DNA of 64,000 bases from a virus. Lineage: Duplodnaviria > Caudoviricetes. Made by a program: the position numbers and the translations under genes. Positions 1-54,953 of this stretch are shown in pieces (position 1 is the stretch's first letter; every line of letters begins with the position of its first letter). The stretch lies in the IMG/VR virus record IMGVR_UViG_2862281513_000001, positions 1 to 64,000 of that record. One strand, given 5' to 3'. The notes beneath the pieces are model-generated. The model had not been told where the DNA came from. It ran no database searches and saw nothing but the letters and a program-made list of their open reading frames with translations.

Positions 1-414
1 TCACCACACCTCACGCTCCGGCGGCTCCTGACCTTCGTGCGCGTCGTCGAAGTGCGCCAGGATCGCCGCCTCCACCCGCTGACGGAACTGGTGGGCGCGC
101 TGCTCTGCCCGCTCGGAGAAGACCCGGCTGATCTCCTCCGGGCCGGCGCTCAGCGGCACGCTGATCGGGTCTACGTCATCCGCGTACATGTCCTCTTCGT
201 GCGCCCAGCCGCAGCCGAGGATGCACGCGAAACGGACGATGCCACTACCCGGGTGAGGCCACAGCGGCGGCACGTCTGGTTCCGGGATGATCGTGCGCTG
301 AGGGATGCGGGCCGCGTCCGCGCGGCGAGCGGCCTCCATCTCGGCGAACAGTTCACGGGTGGACTTCTGCGGCAGGCGGGCCAGCAGGTCGTCAAGGTCG
401 GTGTCGGCGGTCAC
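1..414 (-). CDS. Hypothetical protein, possible Zn-binding (CxxxC...H...H)
   Basis: GGAGG RBS before GTG at 414; the longer ORF call overlaps the tRNA and was trimmed. Confidence 0.7.
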   Translation of the reverse strand: MTADTDLDDLLARLPQKSTRELFAEMEAARRADAARIPQRTIIPEPDVPPLWPHPGSGIVRFACILGCGWAHEEDMYADDVDPISVPLSAGPEEISRVFSERAEQRAHQFRQRVEAAILAHFDDAHEGQEPPEREVW

Positions 415-458: not shown

Positions 459-483
459 CAGCCCGCCTCATGGAGGCGGGCTG
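459..483 (-). terminator. Hairpin immediately after tRNA-Leu
   Basis: CAGCCCGCCTC/GAGGCGGGCTG 11-bp stem, followed on - by TCCTGTTTG. Confidence 0.6.
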
Positions 484-485
484 GG

Positions 486-559
486 TGCCCGGGGTGGGGT
501 TCGAACCCACACTTGACCGCGTTTAAGGCGGCTGCGTCTCCCAATTGCGCCACCCGGGC
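486..559 (-). tRNA. tRNA-Leu(TAA), bldA-like anticodon, short variable arm
   Basis: Acceptor GCCCGGG/CCCGGGC + A73; anticodon arm GCCGC-CTTAAAC-GCGGT; T arm GTGGG-TTCGAAC-CCCAC. Confidence 0.9.
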
Positions 560-814
560 CGAGGTCAGACGGCGTTCTCCCGAACGCCTCTTCTCGTGCC
601 AACGGGTCTTGCACTGCGCCGAGTTGTAGAGCCGTCTGCGCGGGGCAACCTTACTGCGCCCGCGTGACGGCCCATCACATGCGCCTCCACGAAGCGGCTT
701 TGGCCATGACTCCCCCTGACTATGCGTCTGGCATGTGGAACCAGCCTCTCTTAGACCAGCGTGCCGACGCAGGGGGGATTTCGGTCAACGATCGTGCATA
801 AACGCCCGAAAGGT

Positions 815-1496: not shown

Positions 1497-2591
1497 TCAG
1501 TCCTCCTTCCAGACCAGGGCCTTCAGCACAGCGCTGACGACCTCGATCCCGGTGTCGGCCTGGTTCAGCAGCCGCACCCGCATCGTCCGGCCCTCTCCGA
1601 GTCGGTTCACCAGCGGGATGGTGCGGAACGTGCCGCCCGCCGTGCCGATCACCTCGTCGATGGGGTGCTCCTGCTTGAGCGTCGTCCCCTCGTACTCGGA
1701 CTGGCGGACCTGGACGACGTCGCCCTCCGCCAGGCCCTCGAAGCGCAGGCCGAGGGTGCCGGTGAAGCGGGCCGCGCCCGCGACGAACACCGCGCCGTTC
1801 GCGGGGTGGTCGCCGGGCTCGTCGTTCCACTCCTGCGTGAACGGGATCTCGGTCCACTCGCCGGGCGCCAGCTGGTAGCCGTGGACCAGGCCGAGATTGA
1901 CGTATGCGGGCTGCATGGGGGTCGTCTCCTGTGCTGTTGGCGGGCTCCAGCTCGCCGGATGCGCCAGGCGCTCGGCGACGTCGGCGCGGAACTGCGCCAT
2001 GGTGAAGGTGAACCGGCCGCGCTTGGCGTAGCCCTCGACCGGGCCGGCCGGATCGGGCTTGCCCTCGACCGAGGTCTCCAGGTGCCCGGCGGCACTGGCC
2101 GCACTCCAGGCGTGGAGGCGGCACAGCGCGGCGTCGAAGCGGACCCAGGTGTCGTACTGGGCGCGCGTGTAGACGTCTGCACCGTTGCCCAAGTTCTCGA
2201 CTTCGAGCCCGTAAAGGGCGTCGTTGCCGTCGACGGTGCTGGACTTGTCCTGCTTGGGCAGCGGCTTCTCGGCGACGATCGCGTTGAAGACGTTGGTCGC
2301 CACCAAGCCCGCGTGGTTGGCGCGGCCGTCGGCGACCAGGACCAGTTCGCCGCTCTTGGGCAGGTAGGCGTGCGCGAGCGGCGGAGGCAGGCCGGGCCGG
2401 CCCCCCGTTGCGATCGTCGTCAGCGAGTTGGTGCCTGCGGTGTGGTGGTTGAGGATGCCGTGGACGGGGCCGAAAACCTTGCCCGTCGCGGCGTCCCGGC
2501 CGCGCTCGGTCCACCCGGGGTACTCGGTGAACCGGACGCCTTCCGCCTTGAGCGCGGCGCGCCACTGCGCAGGGGTCGCAGGCTGCGCCAC
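1497..2591 (-). CDS. Endolysin, N-acetylmuramoyl-L-alanine amidase (Amidase_2-like) with C-terminal beta domain
   Basis: HHTAG, ANHAG, GLEVEN, GHLE and KPDP motifs. Confidence 0.9.
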   Translation of the reverse strand: MAQPATPAQWRAALKAEGVRFTEYPGWTERGRDAATGKVFGPVHGILNHHTAGTNSLTTIATGGRPGLPPPLAHAYLPKSGELVLVADGRANHAGLVATNVFNAIVAEKPLPKQDKSSTVDGNDALYGLEVENLGNGADVYTRAQYDTWVRFDAALCRLHAWSAASAAGHLETSVEGKPDPAGPVEGYAKRGRFTFTMAQFRADVAERLAHPASWSPPTAQETTPMQPAYVNLGLVHGYQLAPGEWTEIPFTQEWNDEPGDHPANGAVFVAGAARFTGTLGLRFEGLAEGDVVQVRQSEYEGTTLKQEHPIDEVIGTAGGTFRTIPLVNRLGEGRTMRVRLLNQADTGIEVVSAVLKALVWKED

Positions 2592-8010: not shown

Positions 8011-9320
8011 CAGCGCCCCCGCCCCGACACGCTCAGCGTGACCTGCGAGTCCAGCGCTGGCGGCGACTCGATGTCGCTGGAGATGCAGACGCAGTACTGG
8101 GCGCAGTCGAGCGCCTGGTAGGTCGGCGGCTGCCCGTCGCGGCCGTAGACGTCCGGGCTGGACTCGCACACCCCGCCGCACTCGACGGTGGCCCTGCCCG
8201 TCTGGCCGTCCAAGGTCACCGCGCCCCCGGCTGGCACGAATGTGACGTGCCAGAAGTTCGCGGGAGAGCACCGGTTGATGTCGGCGACCTCATCGCAGGT
8301 GAGCGTCTGGTCGCCGTGCTCGTACAGCTCGATCGTGATGTTCCGCAGGTCGCTCGATCCGGCCCGCAGGGTGACGATCGGGACGTCCCGGCTCCAGTTC
8401 GGGCGGCCCGTCAGGTCCAGCTCGTAGCAGGCCCGTTCGGAGGCCAGCGGCAGGCAGAAGCAGGTGGTCAGCGGCGCTCCGGGCAGCGGTGGCGCGGACG
8501 GCTTGCAGCGCGGGTCGGCGCACGCGGCCGTCGGGTCCGGGCAGGCTGCGAACCGGCAGCCTCCGCACTCGTCTGGTGGGAGGAGGCACCACTCGACGCA
8601 GGAGCCGTCGAGGTCCATCGGCGGCGTGACCTCCAGAACCGGCAGCGGGTCGGTCCACAGCCACGGCACCGCGGCGGTCATCACCCACTCCACGGTCAGG
8701 ATGTCCGCGCCGTTCTGGCACGAGCCCGTCTCGCAGCCCTTGCCCGCGCGGGCGGTGACCTTCGGCCCCTCGACGAGCGCCACCCGGCGCAGGGTGCGCC
8801 GGTGCCTTGAGTTGAAGGTGGCCGCGTCCAGCTCCTCGCCGGGGCAGCAGTTGTAGACCGTCAGGCAGTCGCCGTCGCAGCCGCTGTCGCCGCAGCCCTG
8901 GAGGACCTCGCCGAGCCAGTGCAGCCCGTAGTCGACGCCGCAGCAGGACGAGCCGAGCACGAGCGCGGTCACCGTGATCGTGCGGGGCAGAGCACGGGCC
9001 GGGCCGATGGCGCCGCCGCCGGCGATGCCGCCGGTCACGGTGCGCTGGACCGGATAGTCGTCGAGGCCGTCGACCTGGAGCACCATGACGCCGGCGAACT
9101 CGGCCGACTCGGGCACGTCCGCGTCGTACCAGGGTGCGGGACTGTCCGCGTCGTCGGGCGTGGTGTACGGCAGCTCCTCCAGCGTGGCCGCCGTGAACGT
9201 CGGGCAGCCGCATCCGCTGTAGCCGTCCAGCGGCGAGCCGACGGTGTCCAGGTAGACGTTCAAGCGGGCGTGGTTCACCACCTCGACGCCGCCGTAGGTC
9301 AGGTACCAGTCAGCCGCCAT
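8010..9320 (-). CDS. Cys-rich minor tail protein (distal tail-like)
   Basis: First gene after the tape measure; RTITVTA motif; very Cys-rich. Confidence 0.75.
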   Translation of the reverse strand: MAADWYLTYGGVEVVNHARLNVYLDTVGSPLDGYSGCGCPTFTAATLEELPYTTPDDADSPAPWYDADVPESAEFAGVMVLQVDGLDDYPVQRTVTGGIAGGGAIGPARALPRTITVTALVLGSSCCGVDYGLHWLGEVLQGCGDSGCDGDCLTVYNCCPGEELDAATFNSRHRRTLRRVALVEGPKVTARAGKGCETGSCQNGADILTVEWVMTAAVPWLWTDPLPVLEVTPPMDLDGSCVEWCLLPPDECGGCRFAACPDPTAACADPRCKPSAPPLPGAPLTTCFCLPLASERACYELDLTGRPNWSRDVPIVTLRAGSSDLRNITIELYEHGDQTLTCDEVADINRCSPANFWHVTFVPAGGAVTLDGQTGRATVECGGVCESSPDVYGRDGQPPTYQALDCAQYCVCISSDIESPPALDSQVTLSVSGRGR

Positions 9321-12300
9321 CAGCCCGTCACTCCTGCCTCAAGCACGAACCGGTTCATCACTCGCGTCGCGGTGGTGCGTGCGTTGCCGACTTCCCGGAT
9401 CTCCCAGTGGTGGTTGTGGATCACGTCGCCGCCGCTCTTACCACGTCCGAGCGCGGCGACGTCCCTCGGATCAAGCCCGGACTGGCGCAGCCGCTGGCTT
9501 CTGGTGAGCGGCACCACGTTGCCGCCGCCCAGGCTGGGGGCGGCGTCGCCCAGGCCGGACAGCCCCGAAGACACCCCGCGCACGAGGTTCTGCGCCGCCT
9601 GCCGGGATGCCGCGAGCAGTGCGGCCATCCGGTTGAGGAAGCCAATGTGGAGACCGGCGCCGGTCATGTCGCCGAGGCGCATCATCACGCGCGACGGCGA
9701 CTTGATCCGCAGCGCGGTCCGGATCGCCGCCTGCATGCCCTTGGCGATCTGGAGCATCAGCTGCTCGATGTTCTTGCGCTGCGCCTTCAGGCCTGCCAGG
9801 AAGCCCGCGCCGGCCTGCTTGCCCGCATCGAACAGCAGGTCGGCGCTGGTGTTGCCGAGGACGCCGCTCGCCTTCGTCAGCTGCGCCTGGAGGCTGCTGA
9901 GCCTCTTCAGCTGGTCCGACGTCGTCGCCTTGAGGGCGTCGGCGAGCTGGGCGCCCTGCACTGGGCCGAGGCTGATGATCTGGGCCAGCAGATCCTTCGA
10001 CAGGCCCCGCTTGGCCAGGTTGTTGATCTCGGCGGTGAAGTGCTTCACCTGGTCGATGCCCGCCTGCAACCCAGCCTGGAGGCCCTTGACCGTCACCTTG
10101 TCCAGGCCCTGGGCGATGTTCTGCAGCGAGAACGCGTCGACGGCCGACTTCGCGGTGTCGGCCGCGAACTTCTGCGCGTCGGCCAGCTTCTGCACGAGGG
10201 CGTCGCGCTGCGCCGCCAGGGAGGTCAGCCGCTTGTTCCCGGACTGGAGCAGCGACACGAGGCGGTCGTCGACCCGGGTCTTCTTGCCCTTGAAGGCGTC
10301 GGTGATGGCCTTGACCAGGGACTCGGTCGTCGACTTGATCTGCGCGGCCGTGCCGGTCAGGCCCTTCACGAAGCCCGCACCGACGAGCTTTCCGATCTTG
10401 GCGAAGACCTTCGACGGCGAGGCGATCTGGAGGATGTCCTCGGCCGCGGTGATGGCCGTGCCTGCCATGTCCTGAGCGGCGACCGCGACCAGCCGCGCGT
10501 TCGAGCGGATGCCGTCGACCATGCCCTGCACGACCCGCGCGCCCACGTTCGACAGCAGGTCGGCGATGCCGGAGAGGGCCTTGCCGAGGCTGGCGATCGC
10601 ACTGTTGGCGGCTGCGCCGCTGTTCGCGGCGGTGCTGGAGGCGGCCAGGGTGTTGGCCTGGACGACGCCGAGCATGGACAGCAGCCCGGAGCGGGCGGCG
10701 AGCGCGGCGGCGCGCTTGGGCTTGGTCAGCGGGATGACGACCTCGGGCCCGGCCTCGCCGATCAGCGCGTGCGTCGGCCCGTAGACGATGCCGCCCTGGG
10801 CGAACGGCAGGTACTTTCTGACGCTGCTCGGCAGCCCGCTCTTGATCTTGGCCATGATCTGGGAGCCGACGTTGCCGATCGCGCCCACGATCTTGGAGCC
10901 GAGGCCGGAGAACAGGCTGACGACCCCGGAGATCAGGCTCGACACGGCACCCTTGGCCGCGCTGGTCGCCGAGTGGAACGCTCCCGCGATCTTGGAGCCG
11001 ACGCTCGACAGGGTGCTCCCGATCCGGCCCGGCAGCCCGGAGAAGTACGAGACCACCGACGAGCCGGCCGAGCGGGCGGCGCTGAGCGCCGAGGAGCCCG
11101 CCGAACGGAACAGGCCAGCGATCCGGCCTGGCAGGGAGGCCAGCAGCGAGTAGATCCGGCCTGGCAGGGCGGCAAAGAACGAGGCCGCCTGCGACACGAA
11201 CGACGAGATCGCCGCCGTGGTCGCGTTGAACCCCGACACGAAGGCGTTGAGCAGGAGCGAGCCGAGCGAGGAGAGTCCGTCGACGATCCGGCCCGGCAGC
11301 TCGGTGAAGGTGAAGACGACGCCCGCGAGCAGGGTCAGCAGGGCGATCGCCAGTCCGGCGACCGCGGAGGTGAACAGGTCGAGGAGGAGGCCCGGCAGCG
11401 CCTGTAGTCCGGCGAGGATCATGCCCGGGAGCTGGGTGAAAAAGCCGACCACGGTCTGGAAGCCGGACACCACGAACTGGCCGATTGTCGTGAACAGATC
11501 GGAGAAGAACGTGGCCAGGGTCGAGCCGAGTGACGACAGCCCGGAGACGATCAGTCCCGGCAGTGAGGCGATGAACGAGACGACCGACGAGACCCCGTCG
11601 ATCAGCCCGGTCAGGACGCCGATCACGCTCTGAATGACCGGGACGACGCCGTTGATGATCAGCCACGTCTCGAAGGAGGCGGCGATCTGCGCGATCGGGC
11701 CGATGATCCGCAGCAGCAGGACGGCCAGCGGCGCCACGGCGGCGACCAGCCCGGCCAGGGAGGGCAGCAGCGGGATGAGTGCCTGGACCATGGCCGAGAA
11801 GGCGTCGACCAGGGACGGCAGGGTCGGCAGCAGGGCGTCGACCAGCTGCGTGATCACGGGGGCGACGGCAGCCGCGACCTGGACGAGGGCGCCCGCGAGG
11901 GAGGACAGGACGGGTGCCAGTCCGGCCAGCAGTTGCCCCAGGGCCTGGCCTAGTCCGGTCGCGAGCGGCGTCAGCGCCTGAACCAGCAAAACGAACGCTT
12001 GTGCGATTTGCGGGAGGACGGGCATCAGCGCGCCGACCAGCTCCTCAATGATCGGCGCGAAGAGTCCGGCCAGGGCTGAAAGCGTCGGCGCCAGGGCCTG
12101 CGCCAGTACGGAGACGAGCTGGCCGGCCAGCGGCAGGATCGGCACCAGCGCGGACAGAACCTGCCCCAGGGCTGCACCGACTGGCCCCAGGGACGGGCCG
12201 ATGGCGGCAAAGGCGGAGGCGACCCCGGTCGCGACCTCCTGCAGAACGGGCGCGATCTGCGCCAGCGCAGGGCCCAGGGCGGTGATCAGTCCGGTGATCG

Positions 12301-13771
12301 CCGGTCCCAGGGCGACAAAGACGGGGCCGAGGGCGGGCGCGATGGCGCCGATCTGTGTGACCAGCGCGGACAGGATCGGCCCGAGCTGCGCCGCGATCTG
12401 GGCGACCGTCCGGAAGATGTTGCCGATCGCCTCCTGCCCGGCCGCCGACTGAGCAAATGAGGCGAACGCGCCGGTGATCTGCTGGATGTTGTTGAGCAGC
12501 CCGCCGCCGCTGACATTGGCGGCCTTCCAGACGTTGGCGAGGATGCTGCCGACGTTCTGTGCGATCTGCCCGAGCTGCTGGAACACGGTGAGTGCGCCCT
12601 GGACCAGCGACACCGCCCGACCGCTGTCGGCGAGCTTCTGCAGGAACTCGCCGATCCGCACGCCGACGTTGCCGATCGCCGTGCCGAGCTGCGCGCCGAA
12701 CGCCTGACTGACAGTGCTCGCGACCGCCAGCAGTCCCGACGCCAGCGGCTGCACGGCCCGCGCGAGGCCGTCGACCGCGCTCGCCGTCCCGGAGACGACG
12801 CCCTGGACGCCGGTGAACGCCGTCTTCGATGCCGCGAACTTCAGCCCCTGCTGAGCGGCCCGCCCGAACGCGGCCGCGATCTGATCCAGGCCGGACTGCA
12901 GCGGCAGCAGGTTCTTGATCGCCCCGGTGACGTCGCCGGAGAACTGCTTGAAGAACTGCTGCTGTACGGACTGCTGGACCTTCTTCAGCTCCGGCGCCAG
13001 GTCATGTACAGCGGTGACGGCCTCCCGCGCGGCTGGCGCCAGGCCCTTGATCGCCTTCTCGAAGTCGCCGGCCTTCGAGGAGAAGGCGGCCGTCAGCGCG
13101 TCACCGACACCGAGGACGGCCAGCTTGAGGGTGCCGAGGGCGACCTGCGCGCCGGCGATCGCCGCAGGGAAGGCGGCGACGATGCCCGCGGCCGGGGCGA
13201 GCGCTGCGAGGAGTTTCGCGACGCCCGCGGCGGCGCCCGCCGCGGCGATCCCGTACGCGCCGAACTTCAGGCCCGTCGCGAGCACCTTGCCGACCCGGCC
13301 CGCAACACCGGCGAGCCCGGCCAGGGACCGCGTCAGCCGGTTGTTGTCGACGTTGACGTTGGCGTTGACTGTGACGTCGGGGGTGTTGTGCGCCCGGATA
13401 CGGCGGTCGAGTTCGTCCAGGTCGGGCACGACCCGGATCGGGATCTCAACGTCCGCGAGGAGGGCACGCAGCCGCTCCACGAAGCCCGTCACGTCCGGCG
13501 CGACGGGGATGTCGATCGAGTCCAGCGACCGCAGGCCGTTCAGGAGCTGCGCGTCGAAGCGGCGCAGGTCCGGCTCGACGCGGACGGTGACGGCCTGGGC
13601 GTTCAGGCCCCGCTGGATCTGCCGGCGGATCTGCTCGCCGATCCGGCGGGTCGCCCGCAGTAGTGCCCGCTGGATCTGGGTGCCGGCGACCCGGGCTTCA
13701 CCGTCCGCGCTGCGACTGTCGATGTCGATAGTGATCCGGGCGGATCCGAAGTCGACGTCATCGCCTGCCAT
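9320..13771 (-). CDS. Tape measure protein
   Basis: 1483 aa, Ala/Leu helical repeats, FAQGG..GEAGPE and IASPSK motifs; follows the chaperones. Confidence 0.95.
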   Translation of the reverse strand: MAGDDVDFGSARITIDIDSRSADGEARVAGTQIQRALLRATRRIGEQIRRQIQRGLNAQAVTVRVEPDLRRFDAQLLNGLRSLDSIDIPVAPDVTGFVERLRALLADVEIPIRVVPDLDELDRRIRAHNTPDVTVNANVNVDNNRLTRSLAGLAGVAGRVGKVLATGLKFGAYGIAAAGAAAGVAKLLAALAPAAGIVAAFPAAIAGAQVALGTLKLAVLGVGDALTAAFSSKAGDFEKAIKGLAPAAREAVTAVHDLAPELKKVQQSVQQQFFKQFSGDVTGAIKNLLPLQSGLDQIAAAFGRAAQQGLKFAASKTAFTGVQGVVSGTASAVDGLARAVQPLASGLLAVASTVSQAFGAQLGTAIGNVGVRIGEFLQKLADSGRAVSLVQGALTVFQQLGQIAQNVGSILANVWKAANVSGGGLLNNIQQITGAFASFAQSAAGQEAIGNIFRTVAQIAAQLGPILSALVTQIGAIAPALGPVFVALGPAITGLITALGPALAQIAPVLQEVATGVASAFAAIGPSLGPVGAALGQVLSALVPILPLAGQLVSVLAQALAPTLSALAGLFAPIIEELVGALMPVLPQIAQAFVLLVQALTPLATGLGQALGQLLAGLAPVLSSLAGALVQVAAAVAPVITQLVDALLPTLPSLVDAFSAMVQALIPLLPSLAGLVAAVAPLAVLLLRIIGPIAQIAASFETWLIINGVVPVIQSVIGVLTGLIDGVSSVVSFIASLPGLIVSGLSSLGSTLATFFSDLFTTIGQFVVSGFQTVVGFFTQLPGMILAGLQALPGLLLDLFTSAVAGLAIALLTLLAGVVFTFTELPGRIVDGLSSLGSLLLNAFVSGFNATTAAISSFVSQAASFFAALPGRIYSLLASLPGRIAGLFRSAGSSALSAARSAGSSVVSYFSGLPGRIGSTLSSVGSKIAGAFHSATSAAKGAVSSLISGVVSLFSGLGSKIVGAIGNVGSQIMAKIKSGLPSSVRKYLPFAQGGIVYGPTHALIGEAGPEVVIPLTKPKRAAALAARSGLLSMLGVVQANTLAASSTAANSGAAANSAIASLGKALSGIADLLSNVGARVVQGMVDGIRSNARLVAVAAQDMAGTAITAAEDILQIASPSKVFAKIGKLVGAGFVKGLTGTAAQIKSTTESLVKAITDAFKGKKTRVDDRLVSLLQSGNKRLTSLAAQRDALVQKLADAQKFAADTAKSAVDAFSLQNIAQGLDKVTVKGLQAGLQAGIDQVKHFTAEINNLAKRGLSKDLLAQIISLGPVQGAQLADALKATTSDQLKRLSSLQAQLTKASGVLGNTSADLLFDAGKQAGAGFLAGLKAQRKNIEQLMLQIAKGMQAAIRTALRIKSPSRVMMRLGDMTGAGLHIGFLNRMAALLAASRQAAQNLVRGVSSGLSGLGDAAPSLGGGNVVPLTRSQRLRQSGLDPRDVAALGRGKSGGDVIHNHHWEIREVGNARTTATRVMNRFVLEAGVTG

Positions 13772-34980: not shown

Positions 34981-36615
34981 TCAGGCGATCGGGCAGGTGA
35001 CGCCGAGCTGCTCGCCGGTGCGGCCGTCGGGGCAGACCGGGACGGTGACGACGCGGGCCTCGTTGTTCCGGGCGATGAGCGCGGTGCACTCCTCGGTGAA
35101 CAAGGCCGTGTAGTCGTTCGTCGAGAACTTCGTCGAGTCGTGGATCACGCCCAGCGAGATCTCGCCGCCGCGCCCTGCCTCGAAGGTGCCGGCCGGGTAG
35201 ATCAGGAACGGGATGGACGTCGGCCAGTCGGTGGCCGGGGTCGGGCCGCCGATGTCGGTCGGGACGGCCGGGGTCAGGCCGCGCGCCCACTGCACGCTGA
35301 TGCCGAGCTGCGCGAACGCGTTGACGACGCACGCGATGTCGATGTCGTCGCAGCTGACGCCGTTCTGGCGGGCGATGTCTGCCAGGAACAGGTTCTTCGC
35401 CCACCAGGGGAAGACGACCTCGATGTTGATGTTCTGGCAGAGGCTCAGCTTCTCCGTCATGTCGCTGGCCTGGAGGGCGACCGCGGCGAAGATGGCGGAG
35501 AACGCGCCGAACGTGGCGGCGATCGTGACGGCGGTGGAGGCGGCCACGGCCTGCGTGAACAATTCCTGGCGGATGCGGATCTCGTGCGCGACCATCGCCA
35601 GCGACTGGTAGTACGCCACCAGCTCCGGGAAGTGCCGCTGCGTCAGGATGCCGGACTCCAGGCACGCGCCGACCGCGTCACAGCGGACCTCGACCGGCTC
35701 CGGGCAGGGGATGCGGAAGCAGGGCTTGACCGCGCCGGAGATGTCGTCGGCCTCGGTGTGAATCCACGTCATGGCGGCGACGTCGAGCGACGGCATCGGG
35801 AAGTAGCGCAGGCCGCCGCGGGCGAGCTGGATCTCGGGCAGGTCCCACAGCATCTCCGGGCAGGACATGTTGGTGAGGGTGTAGACCGTCTCGGACGGCG
35901 CACACCATCCGCCGCTCGCGACGAGGTCGCCGCCGTTGAGACGGGACTGGTCGCCGGCGAGGACGACCGCACGCGTGCCCTCCGTGCCCGAGGAGCTGTC
36001 GTTGACGATGAGCTGCTGCGGGAACGGCAGCCGGTAGGAGGCGGTCAGGCCCACGCCGCCACCGGCGGTCTTGAGGGCGTTGGCGCGCCGGATGATGCCC
36101 TCGGTGACGCCCTCCATGTCGAGGGGCTGGCCCGGCTGGTAGCCGGGGACGTCGACGGAGGCGGTGATCTCCGGGCGCGGGTTGGGGTCGGCGGGCAGTA
36201 CGCGCGGCTGGTGAGCCCGGACCCGCGACAGGTCCAGGGCGCGGGACTTGACGGCGGCGGAGGCGGTGACGGGCTCCTTGGCCGGCTCGGCGGCGGGCTC
36301 GGCAGCCGGCTCGGCCGGGTTCTCGGCGGCGGGCTCGGTGGTGGCGGCTTCCTGCCCGCCCTCGTCGCCGCGGACGGTCGCGGCGAGCGCCTCGATCTCG
36401 GCGGCGGCCTTCTGGGCGGCCTCGATGCGCTCCGCCTTCTCGGTACGGATGTTCTCGACCGCGGTGGCCAGCTCGCGAAGCTGGGTCAGGTCGTCGCTGG
36501 TGACGGTGCTGCTGCCAGCCTTGGCGTCGAACGCCTTGACCGCGCCGTCGAGAAGGTTGTCCAGCTCTTCGTCGCTGAGGGTGGTGATGTCCTCGGGAAG
36601 CGAGAACTCTTCCAT
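34981..36615 (-). CDS. Major capsid protein with N-terminal scaffold-like region
   Basis: Coiled-coil/EPAA N-terminus, then LVASGGWCAPSE and DST..TNDY motifs seen in actinophage capsids. Confidence 0.85.
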   Translation of the reverse strand: MEEFSLPEDITTLSDEELDNLLDGAVKAFDAKAGSSTVTSDDLTQLRELATAVENIRTEKAERIEAAQKAAAEIEALAATVRGDEGGQEAATTEPAAENPAEPAAEPAAEPAKEPVTASAAVKSRALDLSRVRAHQPRVLPADPNPRPEITASVDVPGYQPGQPLDMEGVTEGIIRRANALKTAGGGVGLTASYRLPFPQQLIVNDSSSGTEGTRAVVLAGDQSRLNGGDLVASGGWCAPSETVYTLTNMSCPEMLWDLPEIQLARGGLRYFPMPSLDVAAMTWIHTEADDISGAVKPCFRIPCPEPVEVRCDAVGACLESGILTQRHFPELVAYYQSLAMVAHEIRIRQELFTQAVAASTAVTIAATFGAFSAIFAAVALQASDMTEKLSLCQNINIEVVFPWWAKNLFLADIARQNGVSCDDIDIACVVNAFAQLGISVQWARGLTPAVPTDIGGPTPATDWPTSIPFLIYPAGTFEAGRGGEISLGVIHDSTKFSTNDYTALFTEECTALIARNNEARVVTVPVCPDGRTGEQLGVTCPIA

Positions 36616-36649
36616 GGGGCCGGTCTCCAAATGATCGATCTTGGAGACC

Positions 36650-36685
36650 CGGCCCAAAACCAGCGGTCGTCTGTAGCAGATAGTA
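36650..36685 (-). promoter_or_regulatory. Late leader motif copy 9 with -10 TACTAT
   Basis: ACCGCTGGTTTTGGGCCG at 36667-36650, then a GGGCCGG-GTCTCCAA/TTGGAGAC-CGGCCC stem up to the capsid ATG. Confidence 0.85.
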
Positions 36686-36727
36686 GCCCGCTGGTCCGGA
36701 AGTTTCGGGTGAACTATGCGTCAGGGG

Positions 36728-38159: not shown

Positions 38160-41100
38160 TCAGATCACTCCGTTCGTTACGGCGACGGTCTCAGCGGCCG
38201 GGTGCTGCGCGACGAGCGCGGCCATCTCCTCGATCTCTGTGCGCCGTTCCTCCTGGCGGCGGGTCACGGCGTCGGTGAGGAGGTCGACGAGGGGCCCGGA
38301 CGCGAGGGCTGCGGCGAGCGCCTCGACGTCGACCTGGACGACCGGCGCCCCGGCGTCCGGATGCCGTCCGGACGCTCCGTCCGGACGCTGTCCGGGCAGG
38401 TCAACGCTGATGTCCGTCGAACTCGCGAACGCCGTCCGGATGTCGTCCGGATGCTCGTCCGGACGGGTGTCCGGAGAAGGTTCGGATGCCTCGTCCGTGA
38501 GCGGGAGGAGGCCCGCGGCGGAGGCGGCGAGCGCCAGGTTCGACCGCTCGGCGACCGCATGGAGGGCGGCCAGCAGCGGCGTCGAGTGGCCGGGCACGGG
38601 CACGGTCAGCACGGCCCGCAGCTGCCACGACCCGTCTCGGGCCTGCCGCAGGTGGTACGACGGCTGGCACGCCGCGAACACCGCCCGGTCCCATTCCGAC
38701 AGCCACGGCGCCGCCGCACCGCTGAACCACAGGCCGCGCTCGTTGAGGCCGACGGTAACGATCGCCCCGACGGTCCTGCTGTCGTCGAACTGGCAGGCCG
38801 CCGTCTCACACTCGGCGCCGTCCCTGTGGTGGCCCACGTTCATGGTCATCGCGCCGACCCGGGCGAACGAGCCGTCGTCGAGCTGGAACTTCGCCCGCAG
38901 GAAGTGCGAGAAGTCGAAGCCCTCCGCGGCGAGCTTGCGCACTGTCAGGTTCTTGCCCGGGTAGCCGGCGTGCGGCTCGTCGATGGTGGCGACCCACCCG
39001 TAGGCGCGGCCGTCCTTCAGGTGGACGCCGCCCGCGCCGTCGGGGAGTTCCTCCTCGGTCGGCTCGGCGAACCAGGCGGCGGGCATCGGCGGCATCTGCT
39101 GCATGGCCGTCCACGCGGACGCCTCAAGCTCGTCCTCGACACCGGCTGCGGACGCGCGACGGTCGATGACCAGGGTGTCGGGCTCCCAGTCCGAGATCCG
39201 GTCCTCGAAGCCGCTGCCGGAGGAGGCCGCCGTGAGGGCGAGTGCCAGCCCTGCGAGCGCACCCGAGGCCATCCGGCCGTTGATGATCTCGACGTCGTAG
39301 ACCGCCGTCTCCAGCGGGTCTTCCGGCTCGTTGGCGGCCGTGACCCGGAACTGCGTGCCCGGCGCGGTGATCCACTCCGCTTCGGACTTCTCACCGCCGA
39401 GGGCGGTCACGTCGAGGGCCTGCGTGCCCTTGGGGGCCTTGATCCTGAACAGGGAGCCGCCGACGCCGGTCATGCCGCGCGCTACGTCCTCGTCGTCGGA
39501 CATGCTGGTGAAGCCCTTGTCGTGGAACTCGTCGCCGGGCTTCAAGCCGAGGCGGAGCTGCCGGGTCCCCCGGAACATGCTCCTGTCCTCGCTCAGCGGG
39601 TCCTGAATGCTGATCAGGTCGCTGAGGGCAGAGATCCGGTGACGGGTCTCGTCCAGCGATGCCCGCTGAGGCTCGGCGTCTCGGCGGAGCAGGGCGTTCA
39701 TGTCCCGGTAGGCGCGGCCCTGGTAGTCGAGCATGGCGTCCAGGTGCTGCTCCTCGCTGAACAGGTTGCTCCCCGCCCAGCCGCCGCCCGCGTGCTGCGT
39801 CCTGCGCGACTCGCGGGCATTGCGGCCACTGGGGTGGTACTTGCGGTAGCTGGGCCGCCCAGGCGTGCCGTGGAACTCGTCCTCGGCGATCCGCTCTTCA
39901 CCGCTCGCGGTCTTCTCGCCCTCCGGCAGGGTCGACGGCCCGCAGAACAGGCCGGGCGCCAGGCGGACGATCCGGCCGTCCTTCGCCGCCCCGTTGAGGT
40001 GCCCGCGCGCGGTACTCATGGCCATACCGAGCGCGTTGGAGACTTCCCGGGCGCCGACGGCGGCCGGTGAGGTGCACACGTAGCGGACGACCCGGTCTCG
40101 GGTCTCCCCCGCCGCGGTGATGTCCGGCACCGGCGCGGCCGCGGTCTCGTCGAGCGGGTCGAGGACGATCTTGGCGTCCTTGAAGGCGGGCATCGACACG
40201 AGCGTGGCGCCGCGCAACCGGGCATCGGTGATGCGCAGCAGGAACTCGCCGGCCTTCTGCTCGTGGATGACCAGCCCGGACTCCGGGTCGTCCGCGTCAC
40301 CGGCCGCCGCGGTGAGAGCGCCGGTGCCGTTGAAGGCCTGCGCGATCGCCGCGGCGGTGAGTACGCCGCCGGGGCCGGTGATGAGCTGGACGTCGTAGCG
40401 GCTGCGGGAGAACGCCTCACCGGCCGCCGTCCACTCGGCCCGGGTGGAGGCGGACAGCATCACCGAGCCGTCCTCCATGCTCATCACGCTTGCCTGTGCG
40501 AGCGTCGCCGACGCGAACAGCCACTCCGCGTCCTCGGGGCTGAGGGTCTTGTCGACGAGCTGGATGCTGACGTTGTCCAGGTCCACGCTGATACCGAGCG
40601 GCGCCTCCTCCTCAAGGAGCTGCACCGCGTCGAGCCCGGCCGGCTGGTTGAGGTACAGCGCACCGGAGGCGGTGATGCGCTTGCCGTCCCGCTTCACCTT
40701 CTTGATGGCGCCGGCCAGGCGGGCGCCCTGGTGGCCCATCAGCATCTCGTCGGCATGCTGGAGCGGCTGCGGCTGCCGGTCCCACTTCAGGGCGCCCTTG
40801 GTGAAGATCCGGCCGTCGCCGGTCTCCTCGTCCTCGTAGGCGATCGCCCACGGGTCGGGCGTCGACCAGGTACGAACCGTCAGCGGAACGAAGTCGGGGG
40901 CCGCGGTGGCGGCGGCCTTGGCGTCAGGCATGGGTTCTTCCTCCTGCTGGGGGCCGAGGGGGATGTCGGTGTGCTCGTCCCCGAAGGCGACGCGCAGCCT
41001 GTCGAAGGTCACGGGGCCGACTCTCGCGAGCAGCTCGCTGTACGGCCCGCTCTCCGCCGTGTAGACGGCGCAGGTGTGGGCCGTCCACGGGGAGTGCTGG

Positions 41101-42329
41101 CGGGGCACGTCGGGATGCTCGGTGTCGGCGAGCGCCACGGTGACGGCCTGGCGGGCGTCGCCGAGGGTCGGGGCGTCGTCGGGCCGGTCTCGGCTGTCGC
41201 TGATGGTCCACACCCACGACGGCTTGTCGGTGTCGGTGTTCCAGTGGGCTGCGCCGGTGGCGTGCCCGGCGATGGGGCCGCCGAGGTCCCCGGCCGCCGT
41301 CGTGAGGGCCTGGATGAAGTCGGCGCGCTGGGCCTCGGTCCACTGGCCGGCGTCGTCACCGAGGAAGAACATCGTGCAGTGCAGCTCGTCGACGGGCTCA
41401 CCGCCCTCGATGGCCAGGCGCTCGGCGTCGGCGGGGGTGGGCATGAGGGCCACCATCGCGCCGGACAGGTGACTTCCATCAGCTGCGGCCGTGGAGTCCC
41501 TGGCATTCTCAAGTGCCGCCGTCGGGGCCACTTGAGAATCGAAGGCCGACGACCGCACCTCGGGGTGGACTCGCAGCACGCACCGGCAGTTGACGACCTG
41601 TGAGGCCGGGGCGCTGGGGTCGTGGGGGGCGTTCATCTTCGAGGAGCCCACGCTGAACTCCTCGTCCAGCAGCAGGACCGTGCCGTTGACCTCGCGGTGG
41701 TCGTGCCGGACACGCGTGTCGGCCTTGGTGACCCACTGCTTGACCAGGGGCCGGTCCTGGCCGGTGGCCGCCCTCGCTGCGCCCAGCGTGGCCGTGTTCC
41801 AGGCCCGGCCGGCTTCGGTACGCGCGATGCCTTCCTCACGGTCCGGGCCGAGCTGCGAGCCCTCCCGGGCGAACCGCTCACGCAGGCGTGCCCGCAGCTG
41901 GTCGATGGACTCGCCCGCGTCGACGCCCGCGGCGAGTTCCTCCCGGGCGGCCTCCGCGAGCCGGTCACCGACCGCGCGCATCAGGTGCTCGGTGACGGTG
42001 ACGTACTCGCTCATCGCCGGCGGCAGGTCGCGGCCGTCCTGGTACCGGCCTTCCAGGTCGTGCCACTCCTCGGGGAGTTCACTGTCGGTTGCCTCCGCGG
42101 TGTGGGCGGCGGCCTGCTCCGACACGCGCAGCAGGCGGCGCACGAGGCGCGGCACCCGCTCCGTGAACATCGCGGCGATCCGGGACACGGAGAACCGTGC
42201 GGCGACGAGCTCGGTGGCGTCGGCCAGCTCCTGGGCGAACTCGTCGGCAACCTCGCCCAGGACGGCCGACACCTCGTCGGCTACCTGCTGTTCGGCGTCT
42301 TCCAGGAGCTGGAACAGGTCGTCAGCCAT
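38160..42329 (-). CDS. Head morphogenesis polyprotein: MuF + 2H phosphoesterase-like + protease-like + HTH + VIP2-like ADP-ribosyltransferase + C-terminal domain
   Basis: IARTE, KQW..DTRVRHDH and NCRC (MuF); LHCTMFFLG and AHTC (2H); ETGDGR, MGH and GISVD (protease-like); FRG, FTSMS and EAE (ART). Confidence 0.85.
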   Translation of the reverse strand: MADDLFQLLEDAEQQVADEVSAVLGEVADEFAQELADATELVAARFSVSRIAAMFTERVPRLVRRLLRVSEQAAAHTAEATDSELPEEWHDLEGRYQDGRDLPPAMSEYVTVTEHLMRAVGDRLAEAAREELAAGVDAGESIDQLRARLRERFAREGSQLGPDREEGIARTEAGRAWNTATLGAARAATGQDRPLVKQWVTKADTRVRHDHREVNGTVLLLDEEFSVGSSKMNAPHDPSAPASQVVNCRCVLRVHPEVRSSAFDSQVAPTAALENARDSTAAADGSHLSGAMVALMPTPADAERLAIEGGEPVDELHCTMFFLGDDAGQWTEAQRADFIQALTTAAGDLGGPIAGHATGAAHWNTDTDKPSWVWTISDSRDRPDDAPTLGDARQAVTVALADTEHPDVPRQHSPWTAHTCAVYTAESGPYSELLARVGPVTFDRLRVAFGDEHTDIPLGPQQEEEPMPDAKAAATAAPDFVPLTVRTWSTPDPWAIAYEDEETGDGRIFTKGALKWDRQPQPLQHADEMLMGHQGARLAGAIKKVKRDGKRITASGALYLNQPAGLDAVQLLEEEAPLGISVDLDNVSIQLVDKTLSPEDAEWLFASATLAQASVMSMEDGSVMLSASTRAEWTAAGEAFSRSRYDVQLITGPGGVLTAAAIAQAFNGTGALTAAAGDADDPESGLVIHEQKAGEFLLRITDARLRGATLVSMPAFKDAKIVLDPLDETAAAPVPDITAAGETRDRVVRYVCTSPAAVGAREVSNALGMAMSTARGHLNGAAKDGRIVRLAPGLFCGPSTLPEGEKTASGEERIAEDEFHGTPGRPSYRKYHPSGRNARESRRTQHAGGGWAGSNLFSEEQHLDAMLDYQGRAYRDMNALLRRDAEPQRASLDETRHRISALSDLISIQDPLSEDRSMFRGTRQLRLGLKPGDEFHDKGFTSMSDDEDVARGMTGVGGSLFRIKAPKGTQALDVTALGGEKSEAEWITAPGTQFRVTAANEPEDPLETAVYDVEIINGRMASGALAGLALALTAASSGSGFEDRISDWEPDTLVIDRRASAAGVEDELEASAWTAMQQMPPMPAAWFAEPTEEELPDGAGGVHLKDGRAYGWVATIDEPHAGYPGKNLTVRKLAAEGFDFSHFLRAKFQLDDGSFARVGAMTMNVGHHRDGAECETAACQFDDSRTVGAIVTVGLNERGLWFSGAAAPWLSEWDRAVFAACQPSYHLRQARDGSWQLRAVLTVPVPGHSTPLLAALHAVAERSNLALAASAAGLLPLTDEASEPSPDTRPDEHPDDIRTAFASSTDISVDLPGQRPDGASGRHPDAGAPVVQVDVEALAAALASGPLVDLLTDAVTRRQEERRTEIEEMAALVAQHPAAETVAVTNGVI
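38354..38486. repeat. TCCGGA array B embedded in coding sequence
   Basis: TCCGGA at 38356, 38367, 38380, 38435, 38446, 38458, 38470 plus variants; CAGGTCA in the spacer. Confidence 0.85.
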
Positions 42330-42579
42330 CGGTGCCCTCCTGTGTCGCACCGGCGAGGGTCACGGAGTTGTCGGCGGCACGGAGGAAGCCCCACATCCCG
42401 AGCGGGATCGTCCCGTACCCCGTGTCGGCGGTGAGGGTGACGTAGACGCTGGCCTCCTCGCCGTCGGGGAGCTGGTCGAAGTGGGTGACCGCCACCGCGG
42501 CGGCGTCCTGGATGAGGCCGACGATGGCGGCCGCGTGCTCGGGTGAGGCGTCGTCCGTCAGGAAGGCCGGCTCAGCCAT
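42322..42579 (-). CDS. Hypothetical protein
   Basis: Overlapping start/stop coupling on both sides. Confidence 0.7.
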   Translation of the reverse strand: MAEPAFLTDDASPEHAAAIVGLIQDAAAVAVTHFDQLPDGEEASVYVTLTADTGYGTIPLGMWGFLRAADNSVTLAGATQEGTDG

Positions 42580-43372: not shown

Positions 43373-43556
43373 GGTCGTCCTCCTCGTCGTTGCAGATCTC
43401 GCACGCCGTCCAGGTGCCGACGACGGACACGCCGCCCGGGGTGAGCATGAGGATGTCGCCGGTGGTGCGCGTCCACGCCTTGCACGTCTTGCACCAGTCC
43501 TCGCGGGCCGGGCCCGGGGTGACGATCACGGTCAGGGGCGCCGGGGAGGCCATCAC
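43365..43556 (-). CDS. Small Zn-ribbon protein
   Basis: CKTC...CEIC; overlaps the portal stop. Confidence 0.6.
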   Translation of the reverse strand: MMASPAPLTVIVTPGPAREDWCKTCKAWTRTTGDILMLTPGGVSVVGTWTACEICNDEEDDRG

Positions 43557-45313
43557 GCGGCCACTTCCAGCGAGGCGCAGGAGCCGATGACGGCGGGGAC
43601 GACCGCGTACGAGTGGCAGATCCCGGCTGCGATCAGCTCGCGGGCGTAGGAGTCGAGCGAGGCGGTCAGGCAGTCCGAGCTGAGCCCGTACCGCTTGGCG
43701 ATCTCCGGGACCCGGTTCCAGGCCCCTTCCAGCAGCCGGTACTGCTCGACCTGGCCGGGCTCGACCTTCAGCTCGGTGTGCAGGGCCGCCGCTTCGATCT
43801 CCCGTGCTCGGGCGCGTTCGCTGCGCGGGCAGATCGGGGTGCGGAGCAGCTTGTCGCCAGCCGAGGACAGGGCGGCCCAGATCAGGCCGTCGGCGGCTGC
43901 GACGAGGCCCTCGCCGAGGGGGCGGCCGGCGGAGGCGGGCAGGGTGTCGGGCTCTTCCTGGGTCTCGTCGACCGGCAGGTCCGGCTTCGCCGGCCCCTGG
44001 TCCTGGCCGTCGCCCGGCTGCTGGTCCTGGCCGTTGTCCTGCTGCTGCTTCTTGCGGGCGGCCTCTTCCTCGGCGGTGGGGGCGTCGGACTCCTCGAAGC
44101 CGGTCTCGCGGCGCAGCGCTGCGGAGCTGATGACGCCACGGTCGAACGCCTGCAGCGCGGTCTCCGACCGGTTGGTGCGCACCCGCAGGTTGGCGGTGTC
44201 GTACCAGACGAGCCACCTGTGCCAGTCCTCGACCTTCTCGGCCTGGAGCAGCGGGCGCATCCACTGCTGGGTGAGGGCGTGGCAGACGGTCTGGAGCTTG
44301 GGCTCGATGCCCATGCGGATCGCCTCGGAGGTGAGCATCCAGGCGCCCCAGTGGTTCGTGTCGCCCATGCCCAGCAGCAGTTCGGCGGGGATCTCCAATC
44401 CGGTGGCGAACCGCTTGATGGCCTCCTCGCGGAGCTTCAGCGCCAGGTCGTCGAAGTTGCTCTCGAACGTGAGCAGCTTGAAGTCGGAGATGGACTCGGG
44501 GGGGACCTCCAGCACGATCGGCACCGTGGCCGCTGCGCTCTCGGGCTCGCGGATCGCCGTCTCGGCGATCATCATCAGCAGCTCGATCAGGTCGTCCTCG
44601 GCGTCGCCCTGGCCGGGCCGGGTGGGGAAGCGGACGCCCTTGGGGACGAGGAGGATGCCGCGGCCGGTCAGCCGGGACCGGGCGATGGCCTTCACCGCGG
44701 CGTTCAGCAGGAGGAGTTCCTCCAGCAGGTCGATGCTGGCGCGCACGGGGCTGTCGGCTTCGACGAAGTGCTCGGGGTCCGGCTCCCACACGCGCAGGGC
44801 GACCGGCGAGTCCGGGTCGAGGGTCTCCTCGTCGCCGGCGGGGACCTCGATGTCCTCGCCGTCGATCTCGGCGATGAGCTTGCCGGACTTCTGGGAGACC
44901 TCGCGGGTGGACAGCACCCGCCAGTCGTGGCCGTCTTCGGGGACGTCGGGGCTGAGGACTTCGCTGTTGGGGCGTACGAGGACCCAGCCCTCGCCGGCCA
45001 CGGTGAGGTGCTTGCCGAAGGCGGACAGCAGCTTGGACTGCCCGTCGGGTCCACCGGCGATCTGGGCGACGATATCGGCGGCACGGTGGTTGTTCGGGGC
45101 GGGCTCGATCGTGCCGTCGTCGGCGCGACGTCCGGCGTACAGGGTGGCGGCCGCCATGCCGTTGGCTTCGTAGGTGGCGGCGAAGCGGACCTCGGGGACC
45201 TGGTGGTACAGCTGCCAGGCTCGGGTCTGCCATCCCTGGTCGGTGGTCGCCTTGAGCGTGCGGACCTTGCGGTCGACGTAGCGGGAGGCGGCGGCCGTGA
45301 GCTGTCGGGTCAC
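43553..45313 (-). CDS. Portal protein
   Basis: 586 aa after the terminase; AWQLY..VPEVRFA, LTVAGE, ADSP and LLG..NHW motifs. Confidence 0.8.
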   Translation of the reverse strand: MTRQLTAAASRYVDRKVRTLKATTDQGWQTRAWQLYHQVPEVRFAATYEANGMAAATLYAGRRADDGTIEPAPNNHRAADIVAQIAGGPDGQSKLLSAFGKHLTVAGEGWVLVRPNSEVLSPDVPEDGHDWRVLSTREVSQKSGKLIAEIDGEDIEVPAGDEETLDPDSPVALRVWEPDPEHFVEADSPVRASIDLLEELLLLNAAVKAIARSRLTGRGILLVPKGVRFPTRPGQGDAEDDLIELLMMIAETAIREPESAAATVPIVLEVPPESISDFKLLTFESNFDDLALKLREEAIKRFATGLEIPAELLLGMGDTNHWGAWMLTSEAIRMGIEPKLQTVCHALTQQWMRPLLQAEKVEDWHRWLVWYDTANLRVRTNRSETALQAFDRGVISSAALRRETGFEESDAPTAEEEAARKKQQQDNGQDQQPGDGQDQGPAKPDLPVDETQEEPDTLPASAGRPLGEGLVAAADGLIWAALSSAGDKLLRTPICPRSERARAREIEAAALHTELKVEPGQVEQYRLLEGAWNRVPEIAKRYGLSSDCLTASLDSYARELIAAGICHSYAVVPAVIGSCASLEVAA

Positions 45314-45651
45314 TTGCCCACCTCGCCGAGGGTGTCGTCGACGCGGTTGAGGAGGACGGCCGCGCCGGCGACCGCGAACCATTCGATGCCGTGGATCAGG
45401 AGCGGGGCGTCGTCGAAGCGGCCGGTGACGAGGAGGTAGGTGGCGAGGAGGGCGCCGGAGATCCACCAGCCCATGCAGTACGGGCAGGAGATCAGCGTGA
45501 CTGCGGCGCTGCGTACGGGGCTGTGGGTCTTTCGGCTGTGCCAGTCGAAGACGACCGCTCGGGCGGGATCGAGGATCGTGTCATGAACAGCCAGCTGGGT
45601 TGCTCGATAGCCAGCGGCGGCGAGGACGAGGAGTGCCGGGATGCTGATCAT
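45310..45651 (-). CDS. DUF1360-like membrane protein
   Basis: YRATQL..D.I and LISCPYCMGWW. Confidence 0.75.
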   Translation of the reverse strand: MISIPALLVLAAAGYRATQLAVHDTILDPARAVVFDWHSRKTHSPVRSAAVTLISCPYCMGWWISGALLATYLLVTGRFDDAPLLIHGIEWFAVAGAAVLLNRVDDTLGEVGK

Positions 45652-50896: not shown

Positions 50897-51742
50897 TTAG
50901 GTGGCGGCTGGCTCGTCCTGCTCGGCGGCCTGCTTGGCGTGTTCTTCGACTTCGCGGCGGGCGATGTCGGTGAGGAGCGCGATCATCGTGGTGAAGTTCC
51001 GGACGTCCTTGCACCGGCCGAAGGCGTACACCGCGGCGGCGAACCCCTCGAACACCTCGACGGGGGCGACGCCGACCAGGTCGGTGCCGTTGGCGATGGC
51101 GGTGACGGCGCCCTTGAAGTCCTCCATCTGGTGCGGGAGGAACATGAGCGTGGCGGCGCGCCAGTCGAACTCGCCGTGCGGGATCGCGAGCTTCGTGTCG
51201 TCCGGCTCCACGGTGGGGAGCTGGTCCTCGTCGAGGCCGGTGGCGATCAGGTCGTCCACGTTGTCGATCATCGCGACGAGCTGGGCGAGGACGTCCTTGT
51301 CGGGGTCGCCGTGCAGCTCGTTGTGCGCGATCTGCTTCGCGATGACCTCGGAGCGCCGCATCGTGCGGGTGTCGACGATGACGGGGATCCGGGCGAGGCC
51401 CGCGGCCCGTGCCGCCCGGGAGCGGTGGTGGCCCGAGATCACCTCGACGGGGCCGGCGCCGCCGGGCTGGTGGCAGTAGGGCAGCGATTCGAGCATGCCG
51501 CGCTTGCGGATGTTGCCGGTGAGCCGCTCGAAGTGCCGCGGCTGCATCACCTGCGCGTTGATGTCCTGCTCGCGGAGCGTGGTGACGTCGACCCACTTGA
51601 TGAACAGGTCCTCGCCGATCTGCATGACGTCCTGCGGCGGGTTCTCCGTCGACCACTCCACCTTGGCGCCGGCCTGCACCACCTCCCCCAGCTCGCCCGG
51701 CGTGAGCAGCTCCGGCTCGCCCTCCGGGGCCGGGGTGGTCAC
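50897..51742 (-). CDS. ParB/Srx-like N-terminal domain protein
   Basis: NAQVM, ISGHHRSRAA and QIAHNELHG; GTGA-coupled to the upstream gene. Confidence 0.85.
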   Translation of the reverse strand: MTTPAPEGEPELLTPGELGEVVQAGAKVEWSTENPPQDVMQIGEDLFIKWVDVTTLREQDINAQVMQPRHFERLTGNIRKRGMLESLPYCHQPGGAGPVEVISGHHRSRAARAAGLARIPVIVDTRTMRRSEVIAKQIAHNELHGDPDKDVLAQLVAMIDNVDDLIATGLDEDQLPTVEPDDTKLAIPHGEFDWRAATLMFLPHQMEDFKGAVTAIANGTDLVGVAPVEVFEGFAAAVYAFGRCKDVRNFTTMIALLTDIARREVEEHAKQAAEQDEPAAT

Positions 51743-54093: not shown

Positions 54094-54170
54094 TGGACCG
54101 CGAGGGAGGACTCGAACCTCCAACCTCCGCCTTCGAGAGACGGTGCTCCATCCAATCGAGCTGCTCGCGG
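54094..54170 (-). tRNA. tRNA-Arg(TCG)-like with atypical C8 and C33
   Basis: Acceptor CCGCGAG/CTCGCGG-T-CCA; D arm GCTC/GAGC with GGA; anticodon arm CCGTC-TCTCGAA-GGCGG; T arm GGAGG-TTCGAGT-CCTCC. Confidence 0.75.
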
Positions 54171-54825: not shown

Positions 54826-54913
54826 CGGTCTGCGCCTTTCTGTGGTGGTGTGTCCTGCTCTCATCATTGACCAATTCGCCGGGTTTACCCTCATAATCCC
54901 GTTGAATTTGGCC

Positions 54914-54942
54914 CAGGGGCCCCGCCGTGTGCGGGGCCCCTG
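54914..54942 (-). terminator. Terminator-like hairpin after parB
   Basis: CAGGGGCCCCGC/GCGGGGCCCCTG 12-bp stem. Confidence 0.7.
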
Positions 54943-54953
54943 CGCCTCCTGGG

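Follow-up and report, generated by a model that had tools for sequence, protein, structure and literature searches.

Translation of TTA codons in Streptomyces depends on bldA and gates sporulation and many antibiotic pathways. Temperate elements with tyrosine integrases reportedly enter tRNA genes in the T-loop region or at the 3' end and rebuild the gene from attP. S. coelicolor has only one tRNA-Leu(CAA), a type I molecule that ScoLeuRS leucylates (Fan et al. 2019, NAR 47:6369, PMC6614811). Charging of type I tRNAs has been shown for ScoLeuRS and SazLeuRS and hinges on a leucine-specific domain of 38 residues that ends in L732-G733; the 870-aa type of LeuRS fails (PMC6614811). An E. coli-type LeuRS reportedly does not charge type I tRNA-Leu, and charging of the bldA tRNA was unharmed when its variable stem was absent (PMC6614811). 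According to the work of Pettersson & Kirsebom (2011) as cited in PMC6614811, bldA is complemented by a type I tRNA-Leu(CAA) whose anticodon was replaced by UAA. Short tRNAs with a UAA anticodon are also found in phages: tRNA-Leu(UAA) genes of ~75 nt are annotated in GenBank for isolated Pseudomonas, cyanobacterial and Bacillus phages, and a type I tRNA(UAA) pattern matches at least 119 IMG/VR contigs. Most of these contigs (e.g. L075-L154) have 32-50% G+C, and their tRNAs are ~74-78 nt long, mostly with A73 and often in tRNA clusters. No relevant report of a prophage integrated at bldA, or of a second tRNA-Leu(UAA) occurring naturally in Streptomyces, came up in the literature searched; such work may have been published elsewhere.

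The window, i.e. the whole 64,000-nt stretch analyzed here, corresponds to C1:4171224-4235223 of a 9.6-Mb genome (G000) with ~70% G+C, whose relatives bear Streptomyces names. ARAGORN, proposed as a check in the initial annotation, called two tRNAs in the window, one of them a tRNA-Leu(taa) at 484-559 on the minus strand with CC included in the call. Rfam RF00005 matched positions 486-559 on the same strand with 57.4 bits (gathering score 29, E 9.2e-10), and the gene measures 74 nt to the discriminator A73. The RNA, GCCCGGG-UG-GCGC-AAUUGGGAGA-(A)CGC-A-GCCGC-CUUAAAC-GCGGU-CAAGU-GUGGG-UUCGAAC-CCCAC-CCCGGGC-A, forms a cloverleaf with stems of 7, 3-4, 5 and 5 bp: an acceptor stem GCCCGGG/CCCGGGC, a D stem of 3 bp plus C13·A22, an anticodon loop CUUAAAC (anticodon UAA), a variable loop CAAGU that ends in U48, and a T arm GUGGG-UUCGAAC-CCCAC with a standard T loop. 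At 5 nt, the variable loop falls short of the long arm (>10 nt) of type II tRNAs. The tertiary nucleotides U8, A14, G18G19, U33, G53-U54-U55-C56 and A58 are present and are invariant in the family alignment. Single-sequence RNAfold did not return the cloverleaf, a result that was set aside because the covariance model and the covariation data favour the cloverleaf. The TAA anticodon, GCCCGG acceptor, A73 and 5-nt variable loop read in the initial annotation were all correct by ARAGORN, RF00005 and the sequence, the strand, unstated there, being minus. Its reading of an ACCCA 3' end was also right: A73 is followed by CC-CAG, so that CCA is only partly encoded. Three homologues encode ACCA, and the host bldA likewise has no encoded CCA.

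A 5-nt variable loop on a Leu-type body places the window copy among the type I tRNA-Leu. That bacterial tRNA-Leu normally has a long variable arm, as had been assumed, holds in general but not in Streptomyces, where type I tRNA-Leu(CAA) is a documented exception (PMC6614811). The short arm is less anomalous than had been suggested: such a form is known to be chargeable in Streptomyces (PMC6614811) and is widespread among phages (at least 119 IMG/VR contigs). With ScotRNA-Leu(CAA) it shares the 5-nt variable loop, A73, U8-A14, G18G19 and the T arm GUGGGUUCGAAyCCCAC, as well as 84% identity over the 3' 47 nt, and both hosts have a LeuRS with a 38-aa leucine-specific domain ending in LG. Whereas ScotRNA-Leu(CAA) has a CAA anticodon and is encoded by a single essential chromosomal gene, the tRNA described here is naturally UAA, prophage-borne and not a housekeeping tRNA, and in its D arm and acceptor stem it resembles type II tRNA-Leu(UAA) rather than the CAA lineage. 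With bldA it has in common the codon and the UAA anticodon in the loop CUUAAAC, and the two acceptor stems are one pair apart (phage GCCCGGG, bldA GCCCGGA). However, bldA orthologues are recognized by the D arm GGUGGAAUGCAGACAC, the T arm CCGGUUCRAGUCCGG, a length of 84-87 nt and a conserved locus upstream of the FAD_binding_3/BaxI genes, and the phage tRNA, with 74 nt against 84 nt, no variable stem and other D and T arms, is not orthologous to them. The tRNAs of ZC03 and ZC08 (Pseudomonas), P-SSM7 and P-RSM6 (cyanophages), BCP78 and TsarBomba (Bacillus) and the IMG/VR contigs are similar in being phage-borne with a UAA anticodon, a 5-nt variable loop, the T arm GYGGGUUCGA and mostly A73. Unlike the present case, in which UUA is nearly absent from phage and host, those phages are mostly AT-rich with UUA common; the present phage also integrates into the UUA-tRNA gene of its host. 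The tRNA type is thus already known; what is new is the setting, i.e. the link to the bldA insertion site.

The single LeuRS of the host (956 aa) is of the ScoLeuRS type, with a 38-residue domain (I689-G726) that ends in LLG and is followed by KMGKS. The tRNA-Leu identity set given for E. coli and S. coelicolor (A73, U8-A14, A15-U48 and G18G19; PMC6614811) is complete in the window copy. Judged from these sequence features, the phage tRNA is very probably leucine-accepting. About 80 of 400 Streptomyces genomes encode a type I tRNA-Leu(CAA); the CAA isoacceptor of this host is of type II (87 nt). These type I genes are 74-76 nt long and come in several sequence variants (e.g. L012-L034); within the genus, both types of this essential tRNA occur. 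Natural mistranslating tRNA/synthetase pairs exist in Streptomyces, and this precedent, together with the loss of one Leu-typical feature in the type I shape, allows for a tRNA charged with another amino acid and a deliberate mistranslation of UUA. PheRS would be the candidate synthetase, as A35, A36 and A73 are shared with tRNA-Phe. We consider this very improbable: the acceptor, D and T arms are those of a bona fide tRNA-Leu(UAA), no dedicated synthetase gene lies nearby, and an engineered type I tRNA-Leu(UAA) restores bldA function as related in PMC6614811.

Nearly all genes in the window lie on the minus strand, phage genes included. The element-encoded nature proposed for the tRNA was borne out, the element being a prophage with a terminase (48559-50148), a portal protein (43553-45580), a major head protein (34981-36720), a tape measure protein (9320-13771) and an Amidase_2 endolysin at the end of the late/lysis module (1497-2591, minus strand). 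The minus strand further encodes a 1,396-aa head protein in which MuF is fused to an ADP-ribosyltransferase exoenzyme-type domain (38160-42350) and a two-domain protein with phage DAM-like and GNAT-like parts (51739-53193). The tRNA gene is located immediately 3' of the lysis genes, as it is in related prophages. Downstream of it lies the start of an ORF for a 137-aa protein of no known family (1-414, minus strand), the first gene of a ~7.3-kb cargo region that extends leftwards from the window to the distal att site and comprises small ORFs, GNATs, a radical-SAM protein and a HATPase_c_2 protein. Homologues of the 137-aa ORF follow the tRNA in five other records (L210, L211, L247, L254 and L255). 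A repeated promoter/operator-like unit, TTGACC..GGGATAACGAGGTTATCCC..GGGTCAATGATGAA, was found upstream of many accessory genes from ~54900 to 64000 and on to ~C1:4245500.

The genome contains exactly two tRNAs with a UAA anticodon, the short one and a canonical long-armed one of 84 nt. The latter is the resident type II bldA, located at C1:4290245-4290328, outside the window by +119 kb, and serves as the attB of the prophage. Directly downstream of bldA, and also outside the window, is a gene for a 608-aa tyrosine integrase (PF00589; C1:4288318-4290141). A 28-bp direct repeat consisting of the last 24 nt of bldA plus 4 nt is present at bldA (C1:4290240-4290267) and at a distal att site (C1:4164411-4164438), with one mismatch and 125,829 bp between the copies. 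Beyond the distal repeat are host genes for FAD_binding_3 and BaxI_1 proteins, and the empty site, bldA-FAD_binding_3-BaxI, is seen in three relatives (G010, G013 and G020). From the integrase, the repeat and the empty sites it follows that the element is ~126 kb long and contains the entire window; the short tRNA is 7.3 kb from the distal att site. The prophage is thus integrated in the 3' end of bldA by a tyrosine integrase, with an adjoining integrase gene, a repeat at the far border and empty sites in relatives, all as in a prophage residing in a tRNA gene. In another lysogen (G245) the arrangement is the same: ~94 kb separate the integrase from the lysis genes and the short tRNA, and a further 8.4 kb lead to a 27-bp att remnant. 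These phages are best explained as a family of large temperate siphophages that attach at the 3' end of bldA, the sole UUA decoder of the host chromosome. A serine recombinase was rejected as the integrase, since the PF07508 matches fall outside the element. The tyrosine integrase has ~200 residues beyond its catalytic domain, its homologues are either long (~600 aa) or short (~430 aa), and several of them adjoin bldA in other species. Five of the seven genomes with close integrase homologues have no short tRNA, which indicates that targeting of bldA does not need it.

Integration has changed the resident bldA. In each of 29 other genomes, positions 49 and 65 of bldA form either A-U or G-C, with strict covariation, and the alleles closest to that of G000 (99% identical) have A-U. 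The resident gene carries an A49·C65 mismatch in the T stem, an allele that occurs in none of 400 other genus genomes, and the distal att remnant keeps T65. The crossover therefore fell on the 5' side of position 65, which makes the resident bldA a host/phage hybrid whose 3' segment stems from the phage. Two further lysogens (G245 and G262) have milder G49·U65 hybrids, and the remnant in G245 keeps C65. As in other elements that integrate into tRNA genes, there is an adjoining integrase, a 28-bp repeat that spans the T loop to the 3' end, and a phage-derived 3' part of the gene. What differs here is that the restored gene has a flaw (A49·C65) and that the element adds a complete second tRNA with the same anticodon. 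In silico, the mismatch costs ~1.1 kcal/mol and the bldA cloverleaf is still the minimum-energy fold. Given this low cost, any damage to bldA is probably partial; the resident gene may even be fully functional, needing no back-up. Loss of thaxtomin production has been correlated with one A·C mismatch in the acceptor stem of bldA (PMC8369830).

One genome per species was scanned with a pattern built on the 5' half of the short tRNA, the T arm and 3' strand lying outside the pattern. The short form turned up in 23 Streptomyces records, and type II genes of 85-89 nt in 31 Acidimicrobiia records. The acceptor, D and T arms of these chromosomal Acidimicrobiia tRNA-Leu(UAA) are identical or nearly identical to those of the phage tRNA, and the main difference is a 13-15-nt variable arm, together with a different anticodon stem. 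This makes the phage tRNA an ordinary actinobacterial tRNA-Leu(UAA) from which the variable stem was lost. The Acidimicrobiia MAG records (L198-L252) point to the body from which the armless form arose. The nearest tRNAs of the host are all tRNA-Leu and align with a gap at the variable arm. Full-length homologues, all with a UAA anticodon, were found in 6 of 400 sampled genus genomes; among the isolated phages in INPHARED there was no close relative, the best matches being unrelated tRNAs with 76-78% identity.

Across 28 distinct family members, 99.8% of stem cells are paired and four pairs show compensatory double changes. None of 500 shuffles reached this pairing, and slid controls were 33-48% paired. 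The UAA anticodon is invariant in all 28 variants and the variable loop is 5-6 nt in all of them; A73 is found in 24 and G73 or U73 in the others, and a few members have G·U pairs at stem ends. This shows that the tRNA is real and structurally constrained. It also bears on whether the gene is a functionless passenger, a relic of att-site evolution captured near attP from a former host. Such an origin would agree with the distance of 0.06-8.4 kb between the tRNA and the distal att site in all resolved contexts, and with arms that equal those of chromosomal type II tRNAs of other actinobacteria. Yet the cloverleaf has stayed intact through compensatory changes and the anticodon has remained UAA, while the flanks have diverged to 70-86% identity or past recognition, and we regard a functionless relic as improbable.

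The tRNA is also found where little of the prophage is left. Ten of the 23 Streptomyces records have it immediately ahead of the host FAD_binding_3/BaxI genes, a position that marks the bldA locus, and in seven of these ten bldA is 0.3-1.2 kb upstream. Three genomes (G017, G089 and G100) lack an att remnant and meet host DNA at three different junctions but keep the tRNA; G089 retains an integrase stub. It was considered whether the 3' end of the short tRNA itself had acted as the distal att site in these genomes, and this was rejected, as the junctions differ and there is no bldA-type repeat. For the same reason the junctions look like independent deletions that spared the tRNA. One decayed remnant is common to four species according to spacer homology. 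Retention in remnants suggests selection in the host, subject to an ascertainment bias, as the tRNA itself was the query through which the remnant loci came to light.

The codon that the tRNA reads is nearly absent from the element. An element-wide count of TTA, as suggested in the initial annotation, gave no true TTA in 65 high-confidence genes (22,238 codons), compared with 0.08 per 1000 codons in the host, where 154 of 5,660 genes contain TTA. TTG is not enriched either (0.73x). UUA is thus not over-represented relative to the host, and codon supply for the phage was rejected as the role of the tRNA. Among 121 loosely called ORFs, eight appeared to be TTA genes: five of them had the codon in the repeated promoter/operator palindrome, and of the others, one had it in another palindrome upstream of ATG and one in a frame with low third-position G+C. 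The palindrome of the repeated unit contains TTA and creates false in-frame codons when ORFs are started at the first start codon.

The only credible TTA in the element lies outside the window, 3.7 kb past the tRNA, in the gene for the HATPase_c_2 cargo protein (C1:4167470-4168015), where it encodes a Leu that homologues conserve. The initial impression that element genes had no in-frame TTA therefore stands for the window, where all raw TTAs lie in the palindrome upstream of the real starts, but not for this cargo gene. The companion proposal that the tRNA serves genes outside the window gains some support, both from this sole credible TTA gene and from relatives with adjoining TTA cargo. Among these, the HATPase_c_2 domain in L247, an XRE regulator in L219 and a 538-aa protein of unknown function in G245 each contain a TTA. 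A further record (L039) has a convergent gene for a NucA/NucB-type DNase (10919-12667, minus strand) ~0.9 kb from the short tRNA, with two TTA codons, one of them at residue 506 of the translated frame and inside the domain match at 482-557. Enrichment of TTA near the tRNA is modest, with ~5 credible codons against 1.8 expected.

The main rival explanation is that of an ordinary spare tRNA for lytic growth, serving the odd UUA/UUG codon or hosts in which bldA tRNA is scarce, the link to bldA then being a coincidence of shared tRNA-Leu(UAA) ancestry. The position of the gene at the end of the late/lysis module would agree with it, as would the common occurrence of short tRNA(UAA) across phages that infect many different hosts (isolated phages, and at least 119 contigs in IMG/VR). 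The element also has a tRNA-Arg(UCG) along with a 1.56x excess of CGA, the classic pattern of codon supply. The leucine codons do not follow this pattern, with no true TTA and no enrichment of TTG, and the tRNA stays beside bldA in remnants that are stripped of all lytic genes. On balance, we consider a lytic spare rather unlikely. The tRNA-Arg gene lies at 54094-54170 (minus strand) and, according to ARAGORN, encodes the sole UCG-anticodon tRNA of the genome; the commoner use of CGA in element genes than in host genes fits a codon supply of the kind not seen for the Leu tRNA.

Phage tRNAs can replace host tRNAs that have been cut by anticodon nucleases, and the altered shape of the short tRNA is compatible with evasion of a nuclease or modifying toxin directed against tRNA-Leu(UAA), or with a decoy for it. 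We know of no tRNA-Leu-targeting system in Streptomyces, and none was identified here. The anticodon loop CUUAAAC is moreover identical to that of bldA, and with UUA nearly unused by phage and host, cutting of its tRNA would hardly block the phage. An anti-defence role therefore has a slim chance, and nothing points to the replacement of a nuclease-cleaved host tRNA that the initial annotation had offered as one possibility.

With a probability of roughly 0.55, we favour a functional leucine tRNA that decodes UUA and, in lysogens, serves as a back-up for bldA or a bypass around it. The host LeuRS would charge the short tRNA, and the charged tRNA would then decode UUA in the lysogen independently of bldA. 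It could act as insurance against damage to bldA from integration or excision, and it could allow expression of adjoining TTA cargo, here a membrane-anchored HATPase_c_2 anti-sigma-type kinase. It might also enable host TTA genes outside the normal timing of bldA, and after prophage decay it could persist as a second UUA decoder beside bldA. The idea that the tRNA overrides host bldA, first raised in the initial annotation, is sharpened by the finding of a prophage inside bldA with a rewritten 3' end, and may be extended further. The phage family would land in bldA, overwrite its 3' half, in some cases leaving a mismatched T stem as in G000, and install a separately controlled armless UUA decoder, which would either take over the bldA-timed programme of sporulation and antibiotic production or insulate phage or TTA cargo regulators from it, and decayed hosts would keep a second "bldA". 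We offer this extension tentatively, at well below even odds.

A prophage that edits bldA and supplies a UUA decoder could alter the timing or occurrence of TTA-gene expression in lysogens. If so, it would bear on strain differences in antibiotic production and on bldA-independent decoding of UUA, and would provide a natural compact tRNA for easing TTA limitation in production strains. If the tRNA were silent or simply redundant, it would be just another phage tRNA of known type.

Several local signals accompany the tRNA gene. A consensus scan of positions 380-900 found no sigma-70-type promoter for it. The motif TTGACCGAAATCCCCCCTGCGT is located ~210 nt upstream of the tRNA (767-788, minus strand; alignment and motif count), with one match in the window against 0.01 expected, and is also present 100-230 nt upstream of the tRNA in G017, G089, G262 and G245. 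This pattern makes it a candidate promoter or regulatory site of the tRNA; as a sigma-70 promoter, the TTGACC motif at 767-788 was rejected for want of a convincing -10 partner. Among public runs, no RNA run was listed as containing the stretch, and only four soil-metagenome DNA runs contain small shares of it. A short hairpin read from the sequence, GGCGTTC-GGGA-GAACGCC, lies 12 nt upstream of the tRNA (571-588, minus strand) and is also present in G089; it is a candidate for the end of the lysis operon or for a processing signal. Directly 3' of the tRNA is a terminator-like hairpin of 11 bp (9 G-C) with the tail TCCTGTTTGT (459-483, minus strand), which is kept after the tRNA in G017, G089 and G262. 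A copy of the short tRNA is also borne by a 432-kb plasmid of Streptomyces sp. NBC_00829 (L039).
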